From assembly GCA_045046875.1 (NCBI GenBank), contig JASFYY010000063.1, positions 1-45,181 of the forward strand: 45,181 bases of DNA, read 5' to 3'. Made by a program: the position numbers and the translations under genes. This document shows, piece by piece, positions 6,352-33,855 of the stretch. The notes under the pieces were generated by a model. It made no database searches. It was not told the origin of the DNA and saw only the letters and a program-made list of their open reading frames with translations. How positions within the stretch are numbered: the stretch's first letter is position 1; each line of letters starts with the position of its first letter. Source of the stretch: Verrucomicrobiota bacterium (GTDB lineage Bacteria > Verrucomicrobiota > Verrucomicrobiia > Verrucomicrobiales > DEV007).

Positions 6352-7845
6352 TCAAACGATGGTGATCTGTTTGAGATAGGCGGACTTACGTTCGATGTCT
6401 TTCTCGGAGAGCACCCCTTCACCTTCGTATTCGATGTCGATGTTTTGGCTCTGCCCGGATTCTTCATCCAGGATCTTGGCTTTGACCCGTTGGTTTTCAT
6501 CGTAACTGTAGGTGACCACCACTTCACAACCAGCAGGTCGACCGGGTGGGACTTTGAGAGAGATTTTGCCAACAATATCGACATAACGTGGATCAGGGTC
6601 TTCTCCCTGGGTGATTTCGACTTCGATCAGTTCCTCGTTGTCTTCCGAGGTGATGTAGGTCTGCGACATCGAGCAGGGGATGGGGGTGTTTTTAGGGATG
6701 ACGATGGAATTGCGTAATTCGGATTTGCCGGTGGAGGCGTCCTCGATGATGGCGATGGTGCCGTAGCTTTGGTTGCAGACTTCGGAAACCTGGCGCGCTT
6801 GTTTGGCGAACAGTGCTGCTCCGAGGGGGACACATTCGTCAACGTTGCCGCAGGAAATGGGATCGAAGCCAAATTGATCGCGTAAGGTCTGTGGCACAAT
6901 AGGCATGCGGGTACTGCCGCCGACGAGAACGACGTGGTCGATGTCAGAAGGTTTGAGCTCAAGAGCGTCCAAGGCTTGCTCGACCAGCATCACGGTGCGG
7001 GTCAGCAGGCGGGAGATGGCTTCTTCGAAAGAATCCCGGGTTAGGTTGATGCGCGCGGAGCCGTCGGTGTCGTTACCGACGGTCTCAGTGATCCGCTGCA
7101 GTTTGGAGAGCATTTTTTTTGCGTCCTCGCTGGTGATCATGGCACGTCGACGTTGGCGTTCATCTTGAAAAAGATCGGCGCCGTTTTGTTTGTGATATTC
7201 CTGAGCCAGGATTTCGATCAGAATTTCGTCAAAATTCGAGCCGCCGAGGTGGCGTGCTCCTTCGGATAGCAGGATATCTATTTTTTCGCCCTCGATATTC
7301 AGTATGGTGATGTCGAGAGTGCCTCCGCCCAGATCATAAACCATGACTTTACCTGAGATGTCACGGGTATGGGCGTAATAGAGAGCGGCGGCAGTGGGCT
7401 CGTTGACCAGGCGGGAGACTTTCATGCCCGCCAGTCGGCAGGCAGTGGTGGTGGCGTTGCGTGCCAGCTCGTTAAAATTGGCTGGCACGGTGATCACCAC
7501 TTCATTGATCTCACCGATAATATTGGAGCAATCTTGTTTGAGTTTGGCAAGGATCAGGGCGGAAATTTCAGTTGGTGTCCACTTCTGACCATCCATCTCG
7601 ATGAAGAAGGAGGGGTCATCCATGTGTTTTTTGATGTTGTGAACGGTGCGGTCGGGGTCGCCACCGTCACGGGCGGCGGAGCCGATCAACTTGACGCCGT
7701 CAAAACGATCAAAAAAGACAATCGAAGGAGTAAGGCGCTCGCCGTCACAATTGGGCACGATTTCCGGAGTGCCGTCCGCTTTGACGTGTGCCAGGCCGGA
7801 AGTCGAGGTGCCTAGATCGATGCCAATATATTTTTCCTGAGCCAT
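6352..7845 (-). CDS. Hsp70-family protein (non-canonical, short, no C-terminal lid)
   Basis: IGIDLGTS, TPS, VITVPANF, NEPTAAA, YDLGGGTLD, LGGSNFD, VLVGGSTRMP; only 497 aa. Confidence 0.92.
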   Translation of the reverse strand: MAQEKYIGIDLGTSTSGLAHVKADGTPEIVPNCDGERLTPSIVFFDRFDGVKLIGSAARDGGDPDRTVHNIKKHMDDPSFFIEMDGQKWTPTEISALILAKLKQDCSNIIGEINEVVITVPANFNELARNATTTACRLAGMKVSRLVNEPTAAALYYAHTRDISGKVMVYDLGGGTLDITILNIEGEKIDILLSEGARHLGGSNFDEILIEILAQEYHKQNGADLFQDERQRRRAMITSEDAKKMLSKLQRITETVGNDTDGSARINLTRDSFEEAISRLLTRTVMLVEQALDALELKPSDIDHVVLVGGSTRMPIVPQTLRDQFGFDPISCGNVDECVPLGAALFAKQARQVSEVCNQSYGTIAIIEDASTGKSELRNSIVIPKNTPIPCSMSQTYITSEDNEELIEVEITQGEDPDPRYVDIVGKISLKVPPGRPAGCEVVVTYSYDENQRVKAKILDEESGQSQNIDIEYEGEGVLSEKDIERKSAYLKQITIV

Positions 7846-8088
7846 GACAATGAGTGAAACCTTTTTCTGTAAAGGTGCCTGCCTTTTAATAATGCAAATC
7901 CGACAAACAGAAAGCCAGATTTGCCTTCTTTGAGATAATTTTCAAGAAGACTGGCCGGAACTTGCGTTAAGCTGCACAACACTCACATTCGTAAGCCCCA
8001 TCGGAAAGCATAAAGACGAGGCATCAAAAGAGAGCCTTTAGCTGGGTCTGCCGACTGATACTTGGAATATCAGAGAATGCTTTCGTTA

Positions 8089-11000
8089 TCAATGACTGGC
8101 GGTTTCCACTTTTGGCGGGGAATTGGCGTCGCTTTCAGCAATTTTACGTTGCATATCCGCCATTCGACCGCTCACAGCAGCGATTTCCTTGCCTTTGTTG
8201 GTCAGGCTGCTGCGCAGCTTGTTTTCAAGGGACGCGGCTTTCGCCAATTTTTCCTCGAGTTCTGCAATTCTGGATTCTTTTTCGTTTTTATCCTCAAAAG
8301 CTTTACTGAGTTCAGCTTGGGCGTCGCCACCTTCGGCTCCGGCCATCATCGAGGCTGTTTCCAGCTGTTTGTGCAGGGCATCGATCTCGGCTTGTTTTTC
8401 AGAGGCCAAGTGTTGAGCTTCATCTTTCATGCTTTTGGCGGATTTCTCCGACTGGATGACTCTGATTTTCATGGTTTCGAGTCGAGCGAAAGCCGCGGAT
8501 TTTTCAGCGGCGATTGCTTTTAGGCGATCGCCGGAATCACCGCTTCCACTGAGCTTTTCCTTGAGCTCCTCCTCTTTGCCTGCCGCTTCGTTTAGGGCTG
8601 CCGCGCGTTCTTCCAAGGTCTTTTGCTGGTCGCGAAGTTTCTGCTCAGCTTCGGCTTGTTGAAGCTGTTGTTTTTTTAATGAATCCTGCAGTTCTGAAAT
8701 TTTAGACTCTTTTTCAGAGGTAGCTTGATTCGCTTTGTTGATTTCGACTTCAGCTTTTTCCCGGGCTTCCTGATTGGCTCTTTCGATCTCTGCTTTGGCT
8801 TTTTCCTTGGCTTCTTGATTGGCTTTTTCGATTTCGACCTTGGCGTCTTGTGCGGCCTGTTCGAGTTTCTCCTGCATCGCCTCGACTTCAGCTTCCTTGC
8901 GAGCGACGGCATCGTCGGCTTTACTCTGTAACTCACTGACGGAGCTTTGTGATGCGCTGACTTGATCTTTCAGCTTTTGCATCTCTTCTTCGGATGCGGA
9001 TTTGTCGCCACTCAGTTCTTTAAGTTTGGCTTCGGCATCAGCCTGTTGCTGTTCTTGGCGGTTGATTTGCTCCTGTAGTTTCTCCTGCAGGGATTCGATC
9101 TCCGATTCTTTGGCCTCAGCGGCTTTTTGTGCACGGCGCACTTCGATTTTGGCCTCTTCACGTGCGGTTTGCGCTGCTTCTTCCAGCTCCAGGCGTAGGG
9201 CTTCTTTTTCGGCTTCTTTCTGTTTGACCGCTTCGTTCGCTTTTTGCTGAAGCTCGGCTACAGAACCTTGGGATGAAGCCACTTCATCTTTGAGTTTTTG
9301 GATTTCCTCTTCGGAGGCGGATTGGTCTCCACTGAGGGCAAGCAGGCGTTCTTCGGCTTCTGCCTGTTGTTGCTCTTGCCGTTTGAGTTGCTCGTCGAGT
9401 TTTTCCTGCAGGGTGGCCATTTCCGACTCTTTGGCAGCAGCGGCTTGTTGTGCCCGTGCTACTTCCGCTTTGGCTTCTTCGCGGGCATCCTGTGCAGCGG
9501 CTTCCAATTTGGCCCGCAGTTTATCCATTTCGGCTTCTTTACGAGCAACGGCGTCATCGGCCTTTTGCTGCAGCTCGTCGACCGAGCTCTGCGAGGAGGC
9601 AACCTCGTCACGTAATTTCTGAATTTCTTCTTCGGAAGCGGATTTATCTCCACTGAGCATTTTTAAACGCTGCTCGGCTTCAGCCTGCTGTTGTTCTTGC
9701 CGTTTGAGCTGCTCGTCGAGTTTCTCTTGTAAAGTGGCCATTTCGGCTTCTTTGGCGGCGGCGGCTTTTTGTGCCCGCTCCACTTCTGCCTTGGCTTCAT
9801 CCCGTGTGGCTTGAGCAGCGGCTTCAAGCTTGCTGCGGAGGGAATCCATCTCAGCTTCTTTCTCTGCAACGGTATCGTGCGCACTTTGTTGTAGGTCGGA
9901 AACTTTGCCTTGGGAAGCGCGGATTTCGTCGCGCAATTTATCCAACTGATCTTCGGATGCCGACTTGTCGCCACTGAGCTCTTGCAGTTGTTTTTCTGCG
10001 TCGGCTTGCTCTTGTTCTTGCTTGCCGATTTGAGCCTCTAGCTTAGCTCTCAGGTTGGCAATTTCAGATTCTTTTTGGTCAGTGGCCTTACGTGCTTTGT
10101 CGAGTTCTTCCTTGGCTTCCGAGCGTACGGTATCGACTGCCTCTTCAAGCTTGTCACGAAGGGCTTTCACTTCGTTTTCCTTTTCGGCTACCCGGTCGTC
10201 AGCACTTTTTTGCAATTTGCTGACTTTTCCCTGTGATGAGCGGATTTCATCGCGGAGTTTTTCCAGTTGTTCGCCATCATTGGACTTATCGCTGATAAGT
10301 GTGCGCAGTTTGTTTTCCGCATTACTTTGTTGTTGAGCTTGTTTGTCGATTTGCCCTTGCAGTTCATCCCGTAAGGCTATAATTTCAGCCTCTTTTTTCT
10401 CGGTATCCTGCTGGGCTTTGTCGGCTTTTTCCCGGGCCGCTTTGCTTACTTTTTCTAATTCTGCGCGAGCAGCCGCTTTGGCTTCGGCACGCGCTTTGGC
10501 TACTTTTTCCAGCGCCTCTTGTTCGGCTTCTTCTTCGAGTTTGTTGAGAGATTCTTTGGAGGCCGCAATTTCACCGCGCATTTTTTCGACTTCATCTTCG
10601 GAAGAAGATTTGTCACCACTCAATTCCTTGATGCGGGTGGCTGCTTCAGCTTGTTTCAGCTGCTGTTTGCGTAATTTGGCCTGCAGCTCTGCAATTTCGG
10701 CATCTTTTTCAGTGGTTTCCGGCGCTTTGTTAAGCCCGCTGGAAAGGTTACCTTGAACGCGGGATTTGCGGATCGTAGGTTTTTTGATGATTGAGCTTTT
10801 AGGCTCAGATGATTTTGCTTTGGGGCTCTCGGATTTTTCTTTGTTTTTAGCGGCCGCTGCCAGTTGGATTTTTTGCGATCCTGTGCGGTTTTTCAGTGGT
10901 GTGACATTAACCGTGGATGCTTTTTTAGAGGGCTCCGCTTCGAGGAAGCGCCCGCGCAAAACGCCAAATTTGATCTCATCTCCGGCTTTGATGATACATC

Positions 11001-11223
11001 GCTGGATTCTCTCGCCATTGATGAAAGTTCCATTAAAGGAGTCTTTGTCGATGATTTCGTAGTTCCCACTGTCAGAGCAGTTGATTTCCGCGTGAAAAGC
11101 AGACATAAAGCGATTCTTGATCCGAACGTCGCAATCGTGATGTCTGCCGATAGTGGTTTTGTCGTCGGAAATCAGAAAGGTTTCGAGATCCGCTTCGCCT
11201 GTATCAATCGTTAATTTCAGCAT
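8089..11223 (-). CDS. FHA-domain protein with long repetitive coiled coil
   Basis: N-terminal FHA motifs IGR, SAFHA, SFNGT; K/S/P-rich linker; ~850 aa of E/K/A/Q-rich coiled coil. Confidence 0.88.
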   Translation of the reverse strand: MLKLTIDTGEADLETFLISDDKTTIGRHHDCDVRIKNRFMSAFHAEINCSDSGNYEIIDKDSFNGTFINGERIQRCIIKAGDEIKFGVLRGRFLEAEPSKKASTVNVTPLKNRTGSQKIQLAAAAKNKEKSESPKAKSSEPKSSIIKKPTIRKSRVQGNLSSGLNKAPETTEKDAEIAELQAKLRKQQLKQAEAATRIKELSGDKSSSEDEVEKMRGEIAASKESLNKLEEEAEQEALEKVAKARAEAKAAARAELEKVSKAAREKADKAQQDTEKKEAEIIALRDELQGQIDKQAQQQSNAENKLRTLISDKSNDGEQLEKLRDEIRSSQGKVSKLQKSADDRVAEKENEVKALRDKLEEAVDTVRSEAKEELDKARKATDQKESEIANLRAKLEAQIGKQEQEQADAEKQLQELSGDKSASEDQLDKLRDEIRASQGKVSDLQQSAHDTVAEKEAEMDSLRSKLEAAAQATRDEAKAEVERAQKAAAAKEAEMATLQEKLDEQLKRQEQQQAEAEQRLKMLSGDKSASEEEIQKLRDEVASSQSSVDELQQKADDAVARKEAEMDKLRAKLEAAAQDAREEAKAEVARAQQAAAAKESEMATLQEKLDEQLKRQEQQQAEAEERLLALSGDQSASEEEIQKLKDEVASSQGSVAELQQKANEAVKQKEAEKEALRLELEEAAQTAREEAKIEVRRAQKAAEAKESEIESLQEKLQEQINRQEQQQADAEAKLKELSGDKSASEEEMQKLKDQVSASQSSVSELQSKADDAVARKEAEVEAMQEKLEQAAQDAKVEIEKANQEAKEKAKAEIERANQEAREKAEVEINKANQATSEKESKISELQDSLKKQQLQQAEAEQKLRDQQKTLEERAAALNEAAGKEEELKEKLSGSGDSGDRLKAIAAEKSAAFARLETMKIRVIQSEKSAKSMKDEAQHLASEKQAEIDALHKQLETASMMAGAEGGDAQAELSKAFEDKNEKESRIAELEEKLAKAASLENKLRSSLTNKGKEIAAVSGRMADMQRKIAESDANSPPKVETASH
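8800..10680 (-). repeat. Intragenic tandem repeat, ~321 nt (107 aa) unit, about six copies; boundaries approximate
   Basis: L(S/I)(G/S)D(K/Q)S anchor recurs near 9009, 9330, 9651, 9972, 10293 and 10617 (spacing 321,321,321,321,324). Confidence 0.88.
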
Positions 11224-17216: not shown

Positions 17217-17810
17217 ATGAAAATCACTTCAGCTAGATTTATCACCAGTGCCGTGGGCCTCGATGATTGTCCGCAATCCGAGATGCCGGAATTTGCCTTC
17301 ATCGGTCGATCAAATGTGGGCAAATCGTCGCTTTTGAATTTGCTCTGTAATCAGAAGCTGCTGGCGAAGGTTTCCAGCAAGCCGGGACGCACGAGGTTGA
17401 TTAATTTTTTTGTGATCAACGAAGACTGTTGTTTCGTCGATTTACCTGGCTACGGTTATGCAAAAGCTGCTAAGTCTGAGCGACAGCGTTTCAATGATTT
17501 TGTGGCGGATTACATTGAGTTCAGGGAGGGGCTCAAGCACGTGTTTATGCTGATTGATTCTCGTCATGAACCGATGACGATCGACATAGATCACGTGACC
17601 TGGCTGGTTGAGCGTAAGGTTGCTTTTTCCCTCGTATTCACAAAGTCCGACAAGGTCAAACCGGGTCGGATGAAAACCAACCAGAAGCTGTTCCTCGAAG
17701 CGCTGAGCGAATACACTGACGGCGAGCCATTGATGTTTACCACCTCCGCTAAATCCGAAGACGGACGTTTGGATATGTTGCAGTTTATTGACGGGTTGGC
17801 GCGGAGTTAA
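17217..17810 (+). CDS. engB: Ribosome biogenesis GTP-binding protein YihA/YsxC
   Basis: PEFAFIGRSNVGKSS, PGRT, DLPGYGY, TKSDK. Confidence 0.95.
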   Translation: MKITSARFITSAVGLDDCPQSEMPEFAFIGRSNVGKSSLLNLLCNQKLLAKVSSKPGRTRLINFFVINEDCCFVDLPGYGYAKAAKSERQRFNDFVADYIEFREGLKHVFMLIDSRHEPMTIDIDHVTWLVERKVAFSLVFTKSDKVKPGRMKTNQKLFLEALSEYTDGEPLMFTTSAKSEDGRLDMLQFIDGLARS

Positions 17811-18193
17811 CCCAGGACTTCAAGCACGATTTTCAGGAGAGATCGGGCAGCTCCGCTTGGCTTACTGGTGCCATGCTCCCATTTATGCAGGGTTTTTGGG
17901 CTGATTCTTAGGAATGAGGCAAATTTTGTTTGGGTCATTTTCAGCATGTGCCGAATTGCAATAGGATCAGGTGATGTGGCGGGAGAAATAGGAGTGGGCA
18001 GTTTTCTGCTAATTTGAGCTGCCGACTCAACGCATTCAATGGCGATTTCTTCGCATTCTCGATACACTTCGATCGGATCATTTCCATGGCAGCAATCACC
18101 CACTAAATCGTGGACGCTTCCGATGTAAGCGTTATCTTCTTCACTCCAGCGTATGGTTTTCGCATAACTCGCGGCAAGTTTTTTAGTGTCCAT
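17807..18193 (-). CDS. HicB-like antitoxin N-domain fused to an XRE-type HTH
   Basis: Y...IRWSEEDNAYIGSVHDLVGDCCHG (HicB-like) and IRHMLKMTQTKFASFLRISPKTLHKWEHGTSKPSGAARSLL (XRE HTH); RBS AAAGGAG. Confidence 0.78.
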   Translation of the reverse strand: MDTKKLAASYAKTIRWSEEDNAYIGSVHDLVGDCCHGNDPIEVYRECEEIAIECVESAAQISRKLPTPISPATSPDPIAIRHMLKMTQTKFASFLRISPKTLHKWEHGTSKPSGAARSLLKIVLEVLG

Positions 18194-21836: not shown

Positions 21837-21932
21837 GGAGACAGTGTCTTGGTTGGTGACAAATTGTCCAGCAGTGTTTAATGAAAAAAATACGGACTGG
21901 TCGCATGAAATTTCATGTATATATTCACAACG

Positions 21933-23015
21933 ATGGCAGATGATCACAGCGTGCAAAAGGAGGGAGTGGGAGAAGCTGAGATGCTGAATCTGAACCGGGT
22001 GCTGTTGGTGGATGATAATCCGACCAACTTGCAGGTTTTGTATCAGGCTTTGGAGGAGCAAGGGTATGAATTGCTGATTGCGCAGAGCGGCGAGGAGGCA
22101 TTGGAGATTGCAGGCGCTGCGAAACCTGCGCTCATTTTGCTCGATATCAATATGCCGGGCATGGATGGTTTTGAAACCTGTGAGCGACTGAAGGCTGATG
22201 AGGCGACCAAGGAGATTGTGATTATTTTTCTGTCGGCAAGGGATCAGGTGCAGGACAAGGTGAAGGGGCTGCAACTGGGGGCGGTGGATTATGTCAGCAA
22301 GCCGTTTCAATTCGAAGAAGTGGTGGCGCGGGTAAATACCCAGCTCGAGCTGAGGCGGGCGAAGGAGGAGCTACGCAGGATGCATCAGCAAGCGGATTCG
22401 TTGTTGTTGAACATCTTGCCGCGTTCGATTGCCGAACGTTTGAAGGAAAGTGAGCGTAACATTGTGGATAGTTTCCCCGAGGCGACGATTTTGTTTTGTG
22501 ATCTGGTGGGATTCACACCTATGGCTTCGCAGACCACACCGAGGGAGTTGGTGCAATTTTTGAACGGTATTTTTTCTGAACTGGATCAACTGGCGGGCAA
22601 ATACGGATTGGAGAAGATCAAAACGATAGGTGATGCCTACATGGCGGCGGGCGGGGTGCCCGACCCTCGTCCCGATCATGCGACAGCAGTGGCGGATTTT
22701 GCGCTGGAGTTGCTGCAGCGTTTACCCTCTTTGTCTGAACGCATGGATCTGCCGGTGAAGTTGCGGATAGGCATTCATAGTGGGCCGGTGGTGGCTGGGG
22801 TGATTGGTGAGAAGAAGTTTGCTTATGATCTATGGGGTGACACGGTGAACACAGCGAGTCGGATGGAATCAAGTGGTGGAGAGAATCGTATACATATCAG
22901 CCGGGTGACTCATGATTTGTTGGCGGATGTTTATGAATTTGAGCAACGCGGTAATGTGACGATTAAAGGCAAGGGGGAAATGGAGACTTATTATTTGCTG
23001 AATAAAAAAGCGTGA
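21933..23015 (+). CDS. Response regulator receiver fused to class III adenylate cyclase
   Basis: REC (LLVDD, LLDINMP, KPF); cyclase FCDLVGFT, EKIKTIGDAYM, YDLWGDTVNTASRMES, IKGKG; start could also be 21915 or 21981. Confidence 0.93.
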   Translation: MADDHSVQKEGVGEAEMLNLNRVLLVDDNPTNLQVLYQALEEQGYELLIAQSGEEALEIAGAAKPALILLDINMPGMDGFETCERLKADEATKEIVIIFLSARDQVQDKVKGLQLGAVDYVSKPFQFEEVVARVNTQLELRRAKEELRRMHQQADSLLLNILPRSIAERLKESERNIVDSFPEATILFCDLVGFTPMASQTTPRELVQFLNGIFSELDQLAGKYGLEKIKTIGDAYMAAGGVPDPRPDHATAVADFALELLQRLPSLSERMDLPVKLRIGIHSGPVVAGVIGEKKFAYDLWGDTVNTASRMESSGGENRIHISRVTHDLLADVYEFEQRGNVTIKGKGEMETYYLLNKKA

Positions 23016-23031
23016 GAGACGGGAACTGAAA

Positions 23032-25611
23032 ATGACACAATCTATTCGCAATAAAATGATGCTGTTCATCGCGGTTCCCACCGTCGCGATTTATATCGGG
23101 GTGATGGTGTGGATCATGGTATTTTCGAAAGGACAGGCTCATCGTTTTCATCATCAGGAAATGAAAGACCGGGCGGAGACGGCAGCCTCGCGTTTTGATG
23201 ATTATATTTCCAAGGTTGCGAGAGTGAGCGAGATCACTGCGGGTTTTGTCTCCTGGGTGCCGGAACTTTCAGATGAGCAGGTGTTTGGCATCGTCGAAGA
23301 TCTGGTATCGGAGAATAGCCGGATTTATGGGGCAGGTTTGGCTTTTGAACCGGGGACTTTGAAGCCTGAGGGCACCTTATTCAGTCCTTACGCCTACAGA
23401 GTGGATGGTAAGGCGGTGAGCAAGAATATCAGCAAGGAGGTGTATGACTGGTATGGGGATGAAAAATGGCAGTGGTGGCATTTGCCTAAGAAGTTAGGCA
23501 AAGGGGTGTGGACCGAGCCTTATTTTGACAAGGGCGCAGGAGATGTGCTGATGATAACTTATTCAACCCCTTTTTATAAGGAGGGTAAATTTTACGGAGT
23601 GGCCACTACCGATATAGATCTGGAAACGCTGTATGAAAATGTAGGGCATAAAATTGCCGGCAAGCGTGAGTTTTATATTTTGTCCAAGGACGGGAGGTTT
23701 GTGTTTTCACCGCACACGGAGGAGATCATGAATAAGAGTGCTTTTGAGGTGCTGGAGAGTGAAGGTCGTTCAGATCTTGCTGACGAACTTCAACAAATGC
23801 TGAAAGGGGAAAGTGGAATAGTGACGGTAGGGGCTTTGTTTGAGAGTGAGCGTCACATGTATGCTTATGCTCCGATCCCTTCGACGGATTGGACCTTTGT
23901 TGCCTACATGCCTGAGTCCGAGGCTTTGTCAGGTTTTCGCCAGAATATGGTGTATGTGGTGAGCGCTTTTGTGGCCGCTCTGCTGTTGATTCTGACGACG
24001 ATATGGATTGTCTCAAAACGTCTCACCCAACCGATTGAAAAACTTAGGGATACGGTGTTGAAGGTGGCGGACGGAGATTTGGATGCTCAAGTGGACGGTA
24101 ATTTTGCCAATGATGAGATTGGCGATTTGGCGAAAAATTTCAATCGCATGACCACCGAACTGAAGGGGCAGGTGTTGCGCCTCGCTCGTGAGGAAGCGGG
24201 GCGTGAAGAAGCCGAGGAGGAGAGTCGGGCGAACAGTGATTTTTTATCTCACATGAGTCATGAATTGCGTACCCCGCTGAATGGGATTCTTGGTTACGCG
24301 CAGATTTTGCAAAGAGATAAAGACCTGCCAACGAGACAACGTGGCAGTGTGGATTCGATTATCAATTGTGGGGATCACTTGTTGTCATTGATCAATGACG
24401 TGTTGGATTTATCAAAAAGCAAAGCGGGTCATCTTGAATTGGATTTGGCCCCTTGTGATTTGAAAAAGCTCACCACAGAGGTGGGCGATATTGTGGGGCA
24501 GCGCGCTCGCAACAAGCGGGTAGATTTTGCCGTGGAGGTTTCAGAGGGAGTTCCACGCACCATTATTTCCGATGCGGCTAAGATTCGTCAGATACTGGTG
24601 AATTTGTTGGGTAATGCTGTGAAGTTCACTGCAAGAGGTAGTGTGAAGTTGCGTGTGTTTAAATCAACAGAGGAGTTGCTGCAATTCGATATTACGGATA
24701 CCGGGGTGGGGATGAGCAAAAAAGAGATGGGACAGATTTTTGATCCTTTCAAACAGGTGAAGGCGGGCAAGGCAGCGGGTGGTACAGGATTGGGGTTGGC
24801 AATCACTGAGCGATTGGTAGCCTTGTTGGGGGGGGAGGTCAGCGTGGTCAGCGAGGTGGGCGAGGGTAGCACTTTTAGTGTGGTGATCCCTTTGCAGCGA
24901 GCGCCCGAGGAAGAGTTGGCTCGACTGGAAGCAGAGAGTGACAGGAATCGTCAGGTATCGAGATTGGCACCTGGGCAAAAGGCGACCATTTTGGTTGCGG
25001 ATGATCGTTTTGAGAATCGGGAGATTTTGAATCAATTATTGCTCAGTGCCGGATTTGATGTGTTGATGGCCGATGATGGAGATGTGGCGGTGGAAGAGGC
25101 TAAAAAAGGCGGAGTGGATCTCATTTTGATGGATGTTTATATGCCCAGGATGAGCGGTATGCGGGCGGTGCAGATTATTCGTCAGGATGAGGATTTGAAG
25201 GGGATCAAGATCGTGGCGGTGACGGCCAGTGTTTCGCTTGAGTTTCGCCAGAAAGCCCAGGATGCCGGATTTGATGATTTCATGGGCAAGCCTTTTTGGG
25301 TCGGTGAACTGATGCGCATTTTACAAAGGCATCTGGATGTGGAGTTCGAATGTGATGAAAACGAGGAGGGGGATTGTGACTCCATCGAGGAGGGTGGGGA
25401 TTTAGCTGAGCTGGAGTTGAGCGGAGTATCCAGATCCTTGGTGGAGAAATTAAATGCGGCGATGAAGATTCGTAATTTGACGGCGATTAAAGAACTTGCG
25501 AAAGAGTTGGAGGCGGACGGGGATCATTCCGCTTTGGCACAAGAAATTTTGAAATTATCCGCAGCTTTTGATTTTAAAGAATTAGGAAATTTGGTCGAAA
25601 AAATAAAGTGA
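23032..25611 (+). CDS. Hybrid sensor histidine kinase (dCache-HAMP-HisKA-HATPase-REC)
   Basis: Two TMs flanking dCache (WTEPYFD), HAMP (DEIGDLAKNFNRM), MSHELRTPLN, NLLGNAVKFT, DTGVG, GTGLGL, REC LMDVYMP. Confidence 0.94.
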   Translation: MTQSIRNKMMLFIAVPTVAIYIGVMVWIMVFSKGQAHRFHHQEMKDRAETAASRFDDYISKVARVSEITAGFVSWVPELSDEQVFGIVEDLVSENSRIYGAGLAFEPGTLKPEGTLFSPYAYRVDGKAVSKNISKEVYDWYGDEKWQWWHLPKKLGKGVWTEPYFDKGAGDVLMITYSTPFYKEGKFYGVATTDIDLETLYENVGHKIAGKREFYILSKDGRFVFSPHTEEIMNKSAFEVLESEGRSDLADELQQMLKGESGIVTVGALFESERHMYAYAPIPSTDWTFVAYMPESEALSGFRQNMVYVVSAFVAALLLILTTIWIVSKRLTQPIEKLRDTVLKVADGDLDAQVDGNFANDEIGDLAKNFNRMTTELKGQVLRLAREEAGREEAEEESRANSDFLSHMSHELRTPLNGILGYAQILQRDKDLPTRQRGSVDSIINCGDHLLSLINDVLDLSKSKAGHLELDLAPCDLKKLTTEVGDIVGQRARNKRVDFAVEVSEGVPRTIISDAAKIRQILVNLLGNAVKFTARGSVKLRVFKSTEELLQFDITDTGVGMSKKEMGQIFDPFKQVKAGKAAGGTGLGLAITERLVALLGGEVSVVSEVGEGSTFSVVIPLQRAPEEELARLEAESDRNRQVSRLAPGQKATILVADDRFENREILNQLLLSAGFDVLMADDGDVAVEEAKKGGVDLILMDVYMPRMSGMRAVQIIRQDEDLKGIKIVAVTASVSLEFRQKAQDAGFDDFMGKPFWVGELMRILQRHLDVEFECDENEEGDCDSIEEGGDLAELELSGVSRSLVEKLNAAMKIRNLTAIKELAKELEADGDHSALAQEILKLSAAFDFKELGNLVEKIK

Positions 25612-25612
25612 T

Positions 25613-26554
25613 ATGAGCAGTGTTTCTGAAAATACCGTTGAGAGGAAAAGTCGCGTATTGTTGGTGGACGATAATCTAACCAATTTGCAGGTGCTGTTTC
25701 AGGCTTTGGAACAGGAGGGTTACGAATTGTTGGTAGCTCAATCGGGTGAAGAGGCGCTGGATATAGCCAGGGAGGCTTGTCCTGACCTGATCCTATTGGA
25801 TATCAATATGCCGGGTATCGATGGCTATCAGACCTGCGTCCAGTTGAAAGAGGATGAGAAAACCCGGGATAGTGTGATTGTTTTCCTCTCGGCTAGAGGA
25901 GATACGGCGGACAAGGTGAGGGGGTTGGAAATAGGGGCGGTGGATTATATCGACAAACCTTTCCAGTTTGAAGAGGTGCTGGCGCGGGTGCGCAAACACC
26001 TTGAAATTCATGCGCGTGAACGACAGTTGGAGCAGGCCAATGAGGAACTTGAGGCTCGTTTGGGGGAAGGTTTTCGGGATTTAAATGATGCAAGTGTGGC
26101 GACGGTGATTAACGAGGGGGAGAGTGACCAATTGGAGTTCAAGTCTACTTTGCGCTGGAATTTACATACTAACAAATCAGATAAGCGTATGGAGAACGCT
26201 TGTCTGAAAACCATCGCAGCTTATTTGAATTCGGGTGGTGGCACATTGATGGTAGGGGTGGATGACGAGGGCGTGGCGTTGGGATTGGAGACGGATAAAT
26301 TTTCCAATGAGGACAAATTGTTACTGCATCTGAATACCCTGATCATGAATCATCTGGGTGGTGAGTTTGCGCAATTGATCAAAGCGACGATTCATACGGT
26401 GGATGAGCAGCGGGTGCTGGTGGTGCAATGTTTGCACTCGGTAGAGCCAGTATTTTTCCGCCGTGACAATGACGAATATTTTTATGTGCGCACGGGACCC
26501 GCCACGGCGGCTTTGTCGCCGAGTGAAGTGATCGCTTATTTGAAGGGACGGTGA
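25613..26554 (+). CDS. Response regulator receiver fused to Schlafen/AlbA_2 domain
   Basis: REC (LLVDD, LLDINMP, KPF), coiled-coil linker, then GESDQLEFKS...KTIAAYLNSGGGTLMVGVDDEG...FYVRTG. Confidence 0.88.
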   Translation: MSSVSENTVERKSRVLLVDDNLTNLQVLFQALEQEGYELLVAQSGEEALDIAREACPDLILLDINMPGIDGYQTCVQLKEDEKTRDSVIVFLSARGDTADKVRGLEIGAVDYIDKPFQFEEVLARVRKHLEIHARERQLEQANEELEARLGEGFRDLNDASVATVINEGESDQLEFKSTLRWNLHTNKSDKRMENACLKTIAAYLNSGGGTLMVGVDDEGVALGLETDKFSNEDKLLLHLNTLIMNHLGGEFAQLIKATIHTVDEQRVLVVQCLHSVEPVFFRRDNDEYFYVRTGPATAALSPSEVIAYLKGR

Positions 26555-29153: not shown

Positions 29154-30449
29154 TTATGAGGGTTCTTCCGGGTTGAATATTTGTTGCCAGTTAGTATTTC
29201 CGGCAGACAGGGCTTCTTTGGCCTTGTCGAGTTCTGTATTGGTATTGGCAAAACGATGGGAGATCACCCCGAGAAACTGCCATAACAGCTTTACTGCGAG
29301 TTGGTGTTCCTGACGAAGGATTTCGAAAAACTCTGCGCGGCGGATAACCATGAGTTCAGTAGATCCTTTGCTGATGACGGAAGCGGAACGGGGTTCTCCA
29401 CGAACCAGGGCCATTTCTCCAAAATGATCTCCGACGCTCAGTTGGGCGATCTCATTATTGCCCTTACGCACTGATGCTTGTCCGTCGAGGATGACAAAAA
29501 GGCTGTCACCTTCTTCGCCCTCATTAATGATGTTTTCTTCGTCCCGGAAATTAACCACGGCCGTGATTTGCAGGACGTGTAATAACTCGCGTTCATCCAG
29601 TTGTTTGAAGAGTGCCATTTTGGAGAGCAGGTCGTGTTTCAATTGCAATGTGCGGGCACGCTCTTCATCCGGATGGTCACCTTCGCTGACCGATATTGCA
29701 ATGGCAGTGATATTGTCCCCGCCACCAGCATCATTGGCTGCATCGATCATCGTTTGCGCGGCACAATCAATATCGCTGATCGCCAGAATTTCCCCAAGCA
29801 TCTCAGGCTCCTCCTCAAAATAATGGGAAAGTCCGTCCGAGCAGAGCAGGAATCGGTCACTATCCAACAAATCGACAATCAGGGTTTCCGGTTTGGCGTG
29901 TTCAAAGGTTCCGATAGCCCGGGTGATCGAGTTGCCGAGTCCAAGTTGTTCGGCATGCTCTTGTGCCAGTTGCCCACTGCTGACCAACTCGTTGTAGACC
30001 GTATGATCCGTGGTGAGCTGTTCGAGTGAATGGTTGCGTAGGATGTAGGCACGGCTATCTCCAACGTTGAGGATGAATGCTTTGGCACCAACAATCAGGA
30101 TGGCGACCAAAGTGGTGCCCATGCCGCTGCATCCTGGGTTTTTGAGGGATTCCGCATGGACTTCGCTGGACGCCCGGTTGGCAGCGAAGGACATCAAGTT
30201 GACTAAGTCCAGTTTGGTTGTGTTTTCGTTTTTATCGAGGTAGCGGCTAAGCAAGTCTTGTTCTTTCCAAATTTCATTGTGAAAAACTTGCACGGCGATT
30301 TTACTCGCAACTTCACCAGCGGCATGCCCGCCCATGCCATCACAAACCACAAACAAATCCAGTCTTGGGTCAGCGAGAAAATTATCTTCGTTTTCCGGGC
30401 GCAGACGCCCGATATCAGTGAGGCCGCAAAATTTTATTTCGATTGCCAT
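29154..30449 (-). CDS. PP2C/Stp1-family Ser/Thr phosphatase with C-terminal cyclic-nucleotide-binding domain
   Basis: NEDN, VCDGMGG, GTT, VGDSR, CSDGL, GDNIT; cNMP cassette FGEMALVRGEPRSASV. Confidence 0.92.
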   Translation of the reverse strand: MAIEIKFCGLTDIGRLRPENEDNFLADPRLDLFVVCDGMGGHAAGEVASKIAVQVFHNEIWKEQDLLSRYLDKNENTTKLDLVNLMSFAANRASSEVHAESLKNPGCSGMGTTLVAILIVGAKAFILNVGDSRAYILRNHSLEQLTTDHTVYNELVSSGQLAQEHAEQLGLGNSITRAIGTFEHAKPETLIVDLLDSDRFLLCSDGLSHYFEEEPEMLGEILAISDIDCAAQTMIDAANDAGGGDNITAIAISVSEGDHPDEERARTLQLKHDLLSKMALFKQLDERELLHVLQITAVVNFRDEENIINEGEEGDSLFVILDGQASVRKGNNEIAQLSVGDHFGEMALVRGEPRSASVISKGSTELMVIRRAEFFEILRQEHQLAVKLLWQFLGVISHRFANTNTELDKAKEALSAGNTNWQQIFNPEEPS

Positions 30450-32727: not shown

Positions 32728-33855
32728 ATGAGGAAAATACGGGAGTTTTTGTTGGGGCCGGAGGGGCAAACGAACTATTACCATGTGGTGAGCCGGACGG
32801 CGGGGAGGGATATTTTGTTTGAGGATGATGAGAAGGAAACTTTTCGGATTTTGATGCTTAAACAGTTGAAGTTCAGTGGACTGCGGGCACTGGCATGGTG
32901 TTTTATGGGCAATCATTTTCATTTGCTGTTGGAGGTGCCGGACAGGGAGTTGGCGACAGAGGGGTGGAAGGATGAGGATTATATTAAGCGTTTGGAGGTG
33001 TTTAAGTATGAGTGGTCGAGCAAGTTGGTATTGGATGAGGTAGAGATGTTTAGGGAGAACGGTGCGGATGAAAAGGTGAATGAGGTTGCAGAATCGGTGA
33101 AGGCGCGGCTGTTTGATCTATCGATGTTTATGAAGGAGCTGAAGCTGAAGATGACACTGGCTTACAACCGGAAACACGGTCGGGTGGGGACTTTGTGGGA
33201 GGGACCGTTTAAGAGTGTGTTGCTGCAACCTCCTTCGCCATTCTCCTTCGCTAAAGCTACGGCGAACAAGAGGCTTCGGCGGTCAGGGGAGACGGATGGT
33301 GAGAGTGGAGAGAGTAGTGATGCGTTGCGTATGGTGGCGGCTTATATCGATCTGAATCCGATTCGGGCGGGGTTGGCGCGGGAGCCGGAGGGTTATCGCT
33401 GGTGTTCGTATGCGGCGGCGGTGGCCGGGGTTCGCGACGCGCGACAGGGTTTGTGTTATGCTGTGATGGGGCGCAGTCGGGTGGCGTGGAAAAAGGTGGC
33501 GCAGGAATATCGTTGTTTGTTGTATGCAAAAGGGAAAACGGTGAAGGCTGATCAAACGGTGGATGGTTACAACAAGGGCAGGGCAGGTTTTAGTCGGGCG
33601 GAGATCAAGGAGGTGTTGGAATCGGGTGGGCGTTTGCCGGTGGCGGAGGCTTTGCGGTGTCGGGTGAGGTATTTTACCGATGGAGCAGTGTTGGGAAGTC
33701 AACGTTATGTGGATGACTTTTTTGAGAGTAAGAGGGAGAGTTTTGGTGCACGGCGTAAGGATGGTGGGCGGCGAATGCGCGGGGCGCAGTGGGGGGATTT
33801 ACGGGTGCTTCGGGATTTGAAAGAGGATGTGGTGACGGTCAAACGGCCTTGTTAG
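32728..33855 (+). mobile_element. REP-associated tyrosine transposase (HUH/Y1, IS200-like), apparently intact
   Basis: YYHVVSR, CFMGNHFHLL (HUH), GTLWEGPFKS, AAYIDLNPIRAG, YRWCSY. Confidence 0.9.
33229..33288 (+). repeat. Two nested ~30-nt palindromic repeat units inserted in-frame in the transposase
   Basis: Outer cctccttcgcca|gaggcttcggcggtcagg is interrupted by related inner unit ttctccttcgctaaagctacggcgaacaa. Confidence 0.72.

Follow-up and report, generated by a model that had tools for sequence, protein, structure and literature searches.

What does a two-component receiver control when the domain fused to it is a Schlafen domain? The question is raised by a gene in a 45,181-nucleotide stretch of a Verrucomicrobiota contig (JASFYY010000063.1, assembly GCA_045046875.1; hereafter the window), which an earlier note had read as a response regulator with an intact RNase site, leaning towards an anti-phage role. 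We posit, with a probability of roughly 0.55, that this REC-Schlafen protein is a two-component-gated RNase that probably cuts tRNA and works in environmental signalling, not in phage defence. The features on which the argument turns are given in Table 1.

Table 1. Positions in the window of the REC-Schlafen gene, its domains and motifs, and the two genes upstream
Feature	Position	Strand	Basis or remark
REC-class III nucleotidyl cyclase, 366 aa, predicted adenylyl cyclase	21915..23015	+	Pfam PF00072 and PF00211 (213 bits)
Membrane hybrid histidine kinase dCache_1-HAMP-HisKA-HATPase-REC, 859 aa	23032..25611	+	Pfam; H-box intact; likely cognate kinase
REC-Schlafen response regulator gene, 313 aa	25613..26554	+	ATG start; homolog search
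Receiver domain, residues 15-127	25655..25993	+	Pfam PF00072 Response_reg, 102 bits, cut-off 30.2
Long helix prolonging the receiver, residues 119-150	25967..26062	+	Structure model; predicted coiled-coil signalling helix
Single-lobe Schlafen/AlbA_2 output domain, residues 153-313	26069..26551	+	Pfam and fold
SLFN_AlbA_2 (PF04326) match, residues 170-299	26120-26509	+	Pfam, 62 bits, cut-off 25.3
Catalytic motif E170-x4-E175-x-K177 (ESDQLEFK)	26120..26143	+	Homolog alignment
GVDD motif, D218 last residue	26255..26266	+	D218 conserved

The open reading frame is confirmed to consist of a receiver, a signalling helix and an SLFN_AlbA_2 domain. This is the arrangement that the earlier note had described, with the two motifs lying where it had placed them, and the PF04326 profile search that it had suggested gives a score well above the cut-off. 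The model of the whole protein (pLDDT 90) likewise comprises a receiver, a long helix and a compact C-terminal domain. The fusion is no assembly chimera, because a 1,337-base contig from another run covers 25149-26490, including the kinase end, the receiver and the output domain, and because both domains are present in 119 of 120 homologs (the best 120 of 551 matches).

The receiver carries the residue set required for phosphorylation, namely D19, D20, the phospho-acceptor D63 (25799-25801), S93 and K115. Across 119 aligned homologs (the best 120 of 551 matches, minus one kinase-fused fragment), D19, D20 and D63 are kept in 118 and both K115 and S/T93 in all. REC-Schlafen is the last gene of a cyclase-kinase-regulator cluster, in which the cyclase and kinase genes are 16 bases apart and the kinase stop codon lies 1 base ahead of the REC-Schlafen start. 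A scan for promoters and terminators was uninformative (8 and 6 sites against shuffle means of 5.6 and 5.5), and co-transcription is therefore argued from these gaps and from the conserved gene order. Among 15 loci of this lineage, nine have the full cyclase-kinase-regulator order, one has it broken, three end inside the kinase, one has kinase and regulator only (L166) and one is a short contig that carries no kinase. A kinase gene stands immediately upstream of REC-Schlafen in 14 of the 15, an adjacency that suggests it as the cognate kinase. With the receiver residues intact and a kinase gene ending 1 base upstream, control of REC-Schlafen by phosphorylation, as the earlier note had supposed, is plausible. 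In one locus (L105:3426-5760, genome G112) the receiver of the cyclase gene runs into kinase-like sequence and the cyclase and sensor parts are missing, which reflects either a deletion or a mis-assembly.

The receiver of the cyclase is 70% identical to that of REC-Schlafen and is its nearest paralog in the genome, as against 29% for the kinase's own receiver. Such similarity suggests that both regulators are phosphorylated by the one kinase, so that cyclase and REC-Schlafen probably share the dCache sensor kinase. Direct phosphotransfer from kinase to D63 is presumed here for an enzyme that has a receiver of its own and in which Pfam matched no Hpt domain. At the C-terminus of the kinase, some 75 residues (about 25360-25611, + strand) form a conserved helical tail with the motif KI[RK]NL...F[DN]F and no conserved His across nine kinases, possibly a degenerate Hpt-like domain.

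Between receiver and output domain, the model places a heptad register (L139/N143/L146/L150) along the helix of residues 119-150. K115 and E170 are 55 residues apart in 110 of 135 homologs, and in ten more the distance is 48, a heptad shorter; this near-fixed spacing fits the expectation for a rigid signalling helix. Fold matches to the whole model include PleD, WspR and EutV, all receiver-coiled-coil-output regulators and the best matches found. These share with REC-Schlafen the long helix that prolongs the receiver but have GGDEF or ANTAR outputs and no nuclease. Regulators of this type dimerise on phosphorylation. Gating of REC-Schlafen by dimerisation may be proposed by analogy with SLFN11 and RzAgo, together with the predicted heptad helix; a homodimer prediction scored 0.34 against a mark of 0.42 (controls 0.00) and was kept out of the evidence. 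Two receiver subtypes occur on one type of output domain, with mean identities to the protein studied here of 75% and 47% for the receiver and 68% and 65% for the output domain, which makes at least one replacement of the receiver probable in REC-Schlafen proteins.

Whether such a pathway serves defence is best judged from its surroundings. Of the rival explanations, the one that survives best, though we consider it unlikely, is an anti-phage two-component system resembling Detocs, in which the kinase would respond to infection and tRNA cleavage by the Schlafen domain would stop the phage. Detocs, which pairs a sensor kinase with a receiver-linked enzyme of potential toxicity, is a precedent for defence (bioRxiv 10.1101/2023.01.24.525353), fusions to GmrSD, HsdR and BrxL are found in the closest relatives of the output domain, the distribution of REC-Schlafen is patchy, and the cyclase weakly matches the Pycsar PycC model (62 bits). 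The neighbourhoods argue otherwise: among 161 neighbouring frames at 20 REC-Schlafen loci, searched with PADLOC with the cluster genes left out, no locus (0/20) has a dedicated defence gene, and the nine matches obtained reflect shared domains in every case (ABC ATPase, cNMP-binding, protease, radical SAM). The 20 loci are related and several lie on short contigs, so that they do not amount to 20 independent trials. By comparison, all four control loci, which encode GmrSD or BrxL fusions of this domain clade, gave strong restriction-modification, BREX, AbiE or SoFic matches. The cluster genes themselves match PADLOC models through their receiver or cyclase domains only, the PycC match being the best; against that weak match, the PF00211 score of the cyclase is 213 bits, and the protein retains the motifs KTIGDAY and FAYDLWG, which in class III cyclases point to ATP as substrate.

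Nor does the Detocs gene set (DtcA kinase, DtcB and the receiver-effector DtcC) describe this cluster, the third gene of which is a receiver-cyclase: no Dtc model was among the PADLOC matches and the cluster has no stand-alone receiver like DtcB, while its sensor is a periplasmic dCache domain. Detocs itself has DtcB as a buffer receiver, mostly PNP effectors (also REase, TOPRIM and hydrolase) and an anti-phage function (bioRxiv 10.1101/2023.01.24.525353). A search of 50,697 phage records and of viral contigs gave no match, the 12 plasmid records retrieved are all below 40% identity, and carriage of REC-Schlafen by phages or plasmids was accordingly ruled out. REC-Schlafen thus appears to be located in a conserved signalling cluster outside anti-phage genes, and the anti-phage leaning of the earlier note finds no support in its neighbourhood.

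Because fold searches with the whole model gave receiver matches only, the output domain was modelled separately (pLDDT 95). Of 48,161 chains, seven matched at Z>=8, and all seven belong to the Schlafen/AlbA_2/SAMD9 family; the next match reached Z 4.9, and Foldseek gave the same outcome. The closest structures were DIP2311 (Z 14.0, rmsd 3.4, 144 aligned), SAMD9 (Z 13.0, rmsd 3.3, 154 aligned) and SLFN11 (Z 8.6, rmsd 4.9, 136 aligned). In a profile of 16 domains the catalytic motif is in sequence register with ESASIEFK of SLFN13 (5yd0) and ESTHVEFK of SLFN14, and GVDD aligns to GVDD. A bare Ex4ExK is common (365 of the 3,484 six-frame open frames of at least 250 aa in this genome, as against a single one for the full core pattern), and the assignment to Schlafen is for that reason carried by profile and fold rather than by the motif. 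At the level of fold and sequence register, the structural comparison with Schlafens that the earlier note had called for supports its domain call.

Its claim of intact catalytic residues is supported, with one correction. E170, E175 and K177 are invariant in all 119 aligned homologs (from the best 120 of 551 matches), and the triad is intact in 240 of 240 domains, other fusions included. Mutation of this E-x4-(E/D)-x-K set kills SLFN11 (E209A, E214A and K216A each abolish activity), RorSlfn5 (E15/D20) and CbCash (E17/D22/K24) (PMC9482658, PMC13056530, PMC13462974). The GVDD aspartate fared differently, and its candidacy as a member of the SLFN11 triad was ruled out, since SLFN11 D252A keeps, and slightly raises, activity (PMC9482658). 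In the homologs D218 is kept in 119/119 and D217 in 102/119 (same alignment), and SAMD9 requires D241 (PMC10246899), which, judged by spacing, may be the counterpart of D218. D218 lies outside the mutation-proven triad, and its role is uncertain.

Purifying selection on the output domain is strong, as estimated from dN/dS of 0.02-0.07 against four same-genus genomes (three of the four dS values being near saturation), similar to the receiver and lower than the linker. The closest relative genome (G094, L098:2107-3048) has an in-frame TAG at codon 207 despite a dN/dS of 0.02, which represents either a recent loss or an assembly error. The output domain carries a net negative charge, averaging -5.1 across 119 homologs, and its defence-fused relatives are likewise acidic.

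The triad residues also bear on a reading that we consider slightly less probable than the anti-phage one, in which the domain cuts nothing but attaches to nucleic acid or to a protein partner, so that the regulator would serve as a scaffold or exert post-transcriptional control. Annotations of PF04326 proteins often give DNA or RNA binding, EutV is a receiver-coiled-coil regulator with an RNA-binding output, and non-catalytic Schlafens exist (PMC13462974). In the non-catalytic cases described, however, a triad residue is missing (PMC9482658), whereas here the triad is complete in every domain compared and the domain appears to be under strong purifying selection.

Under the gated-RNase reading, a small molecule outside the cell would bind the dCache domain of the kinase, which would phosphorylate D63 and, in parallel, the cyclase receiver. 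The coiled-coil helix would then bring together or re-orient two single-lobe Schlafen domains to form a two-lobed nuclease as in RzAgo dimers, a pairing step modelled on RzAgo, CbCash and SLFN11, and the outcome would be translational slowing or RNA remodelling beside a cAMP signal. The dependence of single-lobe bacterial Schlafens on dimers or oligomers (PMC13462974; bioRxiv 10.64898/2026.05.29.728809), and the way in which two Schlafen domains rebuild a two-lobed nuclease in RzAgo (bioRxiv 10.64898/2026.05.29.728809), are the models for this step. We infer RNase activity, the tRNA substrate, dimerisation and the direction of control, for which activation by phosphorylation is more likely than inhibition. 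Points that count against the gated-RNase reading are the net acidic domain, the remoteness of the tested relative, the G094 stop codon, the patchy occurrence of the gene and the kinase having its own receiver, as well as the fact that most characterised prokaryotic Schlafens are defence effectors (PMC13056530). In the literature found, no member of this REC-Schlafen sequence clade has been assayed, and the tested Schlafen EcoSlfn7 was ruled out as a close relative (BLASTP 21.6 bits; hhalign probability 11%).

Homologs with a named source (among the best 120 of 551 matches) come mainly from Verrucomicrobiales (82%), and also from Lentisphaeria, Pirellulaceae and Gammaproteobacteria. A scan of 134 genomes of the family gave a match in 16, with REC-Schlafen in 12 including this genome, and four of the five other genomes of the genus have it; its distribution across the family is patchy. 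Sixteen longer proteins among the 120 homologs add a C-terminal Ser/Thr kinase. Proteins of this REC-Schlafen-Ser/Thr kinase type (P0121-P0136 and P0058; 617-642 aa) are nested within the same clade. Nine of 17 genomes of a Desulfobacterales family, and one gammaproteobacterium, carry a second REC-Schlafen lineage. Two of its ten loci have dCache/Hpt kinase clusters, with REC-HD-REC (L001, L191) and REC-SpoIIE (L191), and the other eight have no kinase or cyclase within the sequence stretch examined. In six of eight loci of the Desulfobacterales family (L184, L185, L187-L190), REC-Schlafen stands head to head with a CitMHS/TrkA-C permease. A sample of 400 Gammaproteobacteria-side genomes, one of them unscored, yielded a single REC-Schlafen locus (L160), and a sample of 301 Planctomycetota-side genomes no long match frame of REC-Schlafen size. 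In a GTDB scan with full-length alignment, both domains were spanned at 1 of 77 loci among the matches listed, receiver matches dominating.

The recurrent partners of REC-Schlafen, namely the REC-cyclase (nine loci), REC-HD-REC, REC-SpoIIE and the fused Ser/Thr kinase, together with a REC-SLFN-REC-HD fusion within the catalogued class pSlfn18 (PMC13056530), an acidic domain that does not point to a long RNA and an R284 invariant in the REC-fused group only (240-domain comparison), could suggest a Schlafen site repurposed to hydrolyse cAMP, a cyclic dinucleotide, a short oligonucleotide or the like, a small nucleotide messenger in each case, as an off-switch for the co-encoded cyclase, but this is the least likely of the three rivals, given that no Schlafen domain with such activity was found in the literature, that the motif is identical in defence-fused relatives that have no cyclase, and that neither L166 nor eight of the ten second-lineage loci (in the stretch examined) have a cyclase.

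Trees place the REC-Schlafen and REC-Schlafen-kinase proteins of this lineage in one group (SH-aLRT 98 and 99 in quick trees of 125 and 89 selected rows), although the rows were picked by similarity to the query, which favours such grouping, and one of the trees was built without two thirds of the REC rows and half of the GmrSD rows. The surrounding groups are GmrSD, HsdR, BrxL, Cache, cNMP and membrane fusions. The two REC-Schlafen lineages fall in separate clades (SH-aLRT 99 each), a single clade not being rejected (p-AU 0.38). The Atlas holds further fusions of this Schlafen domain to cNMP, bPH_2 and DUF2238, as well as a cyanobacterial REC-Schlafen cluster. Cache receptors, cNMP sensors and Ser/Thr kinases are further partners of the same domain clade. 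More tentatively, and at somewhat less than even odds, we suggest that a Schlafen lineage left phage defence to become a general signalling output, with an extracellular metabolite acting through the dCache kinase to switch on tRNA cutting, reversibly and in concert with cAMP synthesis. The trees are unrooted, and the direction from defence to signalling is one that we infer.

The earlier note had called the output class unusual. Rare it is, but it has already been catalogued: the domain composition Response_reg plus SLFN_AlbA_2 is that of pSlfn18 ('CheY.pSlfn'), which accounts for 14 of 5,930 proteins in supplementary files 21 and 22 of Perez Taboada et al. 2026 (PMC13056530). There pSlfn18 is a table label, not among the architectures assayed, and receivers go unmentioned in the main text (PMC13056530). 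The class pools proteins of differing linker lengths; its four Cytophagales members and its Phycisphaerales member have nearly the domain spacing of the protein studied here (e.g. 8-120, 160-292). Its defence score is 0.5, with seven of the 14 members having at least one defence match within 10 kb, a point in favour of the anti-phage reading, versus 0.76 for DUF262 fusions; yet four of the five members with this domain spacing lack a defence neighbour (PMC13056530). The cyclase-kinase cluster and the REC-Schlafen-kinase fusion are absent from the 55 pSlfn compositions listed in that source (PMC13056530). Our literature search found no study describing a REC-Schlafen fusion, and the portions consulted of the Detocs preprint, PMC3710099 and an NLR preprint contain none.

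Like REC-Schlafen, as judged from its sequence, RorSlfn5, CbCash and RzAgo combine a single-lobe Schlafen domain, an Ex4(E/D)xK motif and a sensor-effector fusion; their activity is oligomer-linked, as is proposed for REC-Schlafen (PMC13056530, PMC13462974, bioRxiv 10.64898/2026.05.29.728809). They act in defence, their triggers being a phage protein, cA4 or guide-matched DNA, whereas REC-Schlafen, which lies outside defence islands, is predicted to receive its input by phosphotransfer from a dCache kinase. The SLFN11 and SAMD9 tRNases share the fold and, in register with SLFN13/14, the E-E-K motif, but differ in having a second lobe or other domains and no receiver (PMC9482658, PMC10246899), and SLFN11 is inhibited by Ser/Thr phosphorylation (PMC9482658). 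REC-Schlafen belongs to a rare, catalogued and unstudied class, and its signalling context distinguishes it from characterised prokaryotic Schlafens.

Those characterised Schlafens that we found in the literature are all anti-phage effectors. Whether the 30% of prokaryotic Schlafens outside defence islands have any non-immune role has been left as an open question (PMC13056530), which REC-Schlafen makes directly testable. No phage trigger would be needed for the assay, because acetyl-phosphate or BeF3- can mimic the input. If RNA is cut on phosphorylation, an RNase would join the output classes of response regulators, and the cluster would provide a bacterial receptor-to-RNase pathway and a direct path from an environmental chemical to translational control.

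Several further genes were noted. At 29154-30449 (- strand), 2.6 kb from the cluster, the window encodes a PP2C phosphatase fused to a cNMP-binding domain, a possible reader of cAMP; genes with cNMP domains also occur near the cluster in L106 and L107, and the PP2C-cNMP fusion was not found adjoining the cluster in relatives. Next to an Hsp70-like gene lies the gene of a 1,044-aa FHA protein (6352-11223, - strand) that includes a long stretch of biased composition, and an IS200-like Y1 transposase (32728-33855, + strand) lies within a stretch of strong G skew. A small protein with a C-terminal HTH (17807-18193, - strand) resembles an orphan antitoxin. Two more, distant PF04326 proteins of 489 aa and 310 aa are encoded elsewhere in this genome (L172 and L173, on contigs C25 and C19 of G000). 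Membrane Cache-Schlafen one-component receptors of the pSlfn12 type, with the triad intact, were observed at seven loci (L117, L120, L121, L123 and L167-L169); the three Cache-Schlafen loci scanned have housekeeping-like surroundings, with one near-full-length match to a nicking-enzyme model.
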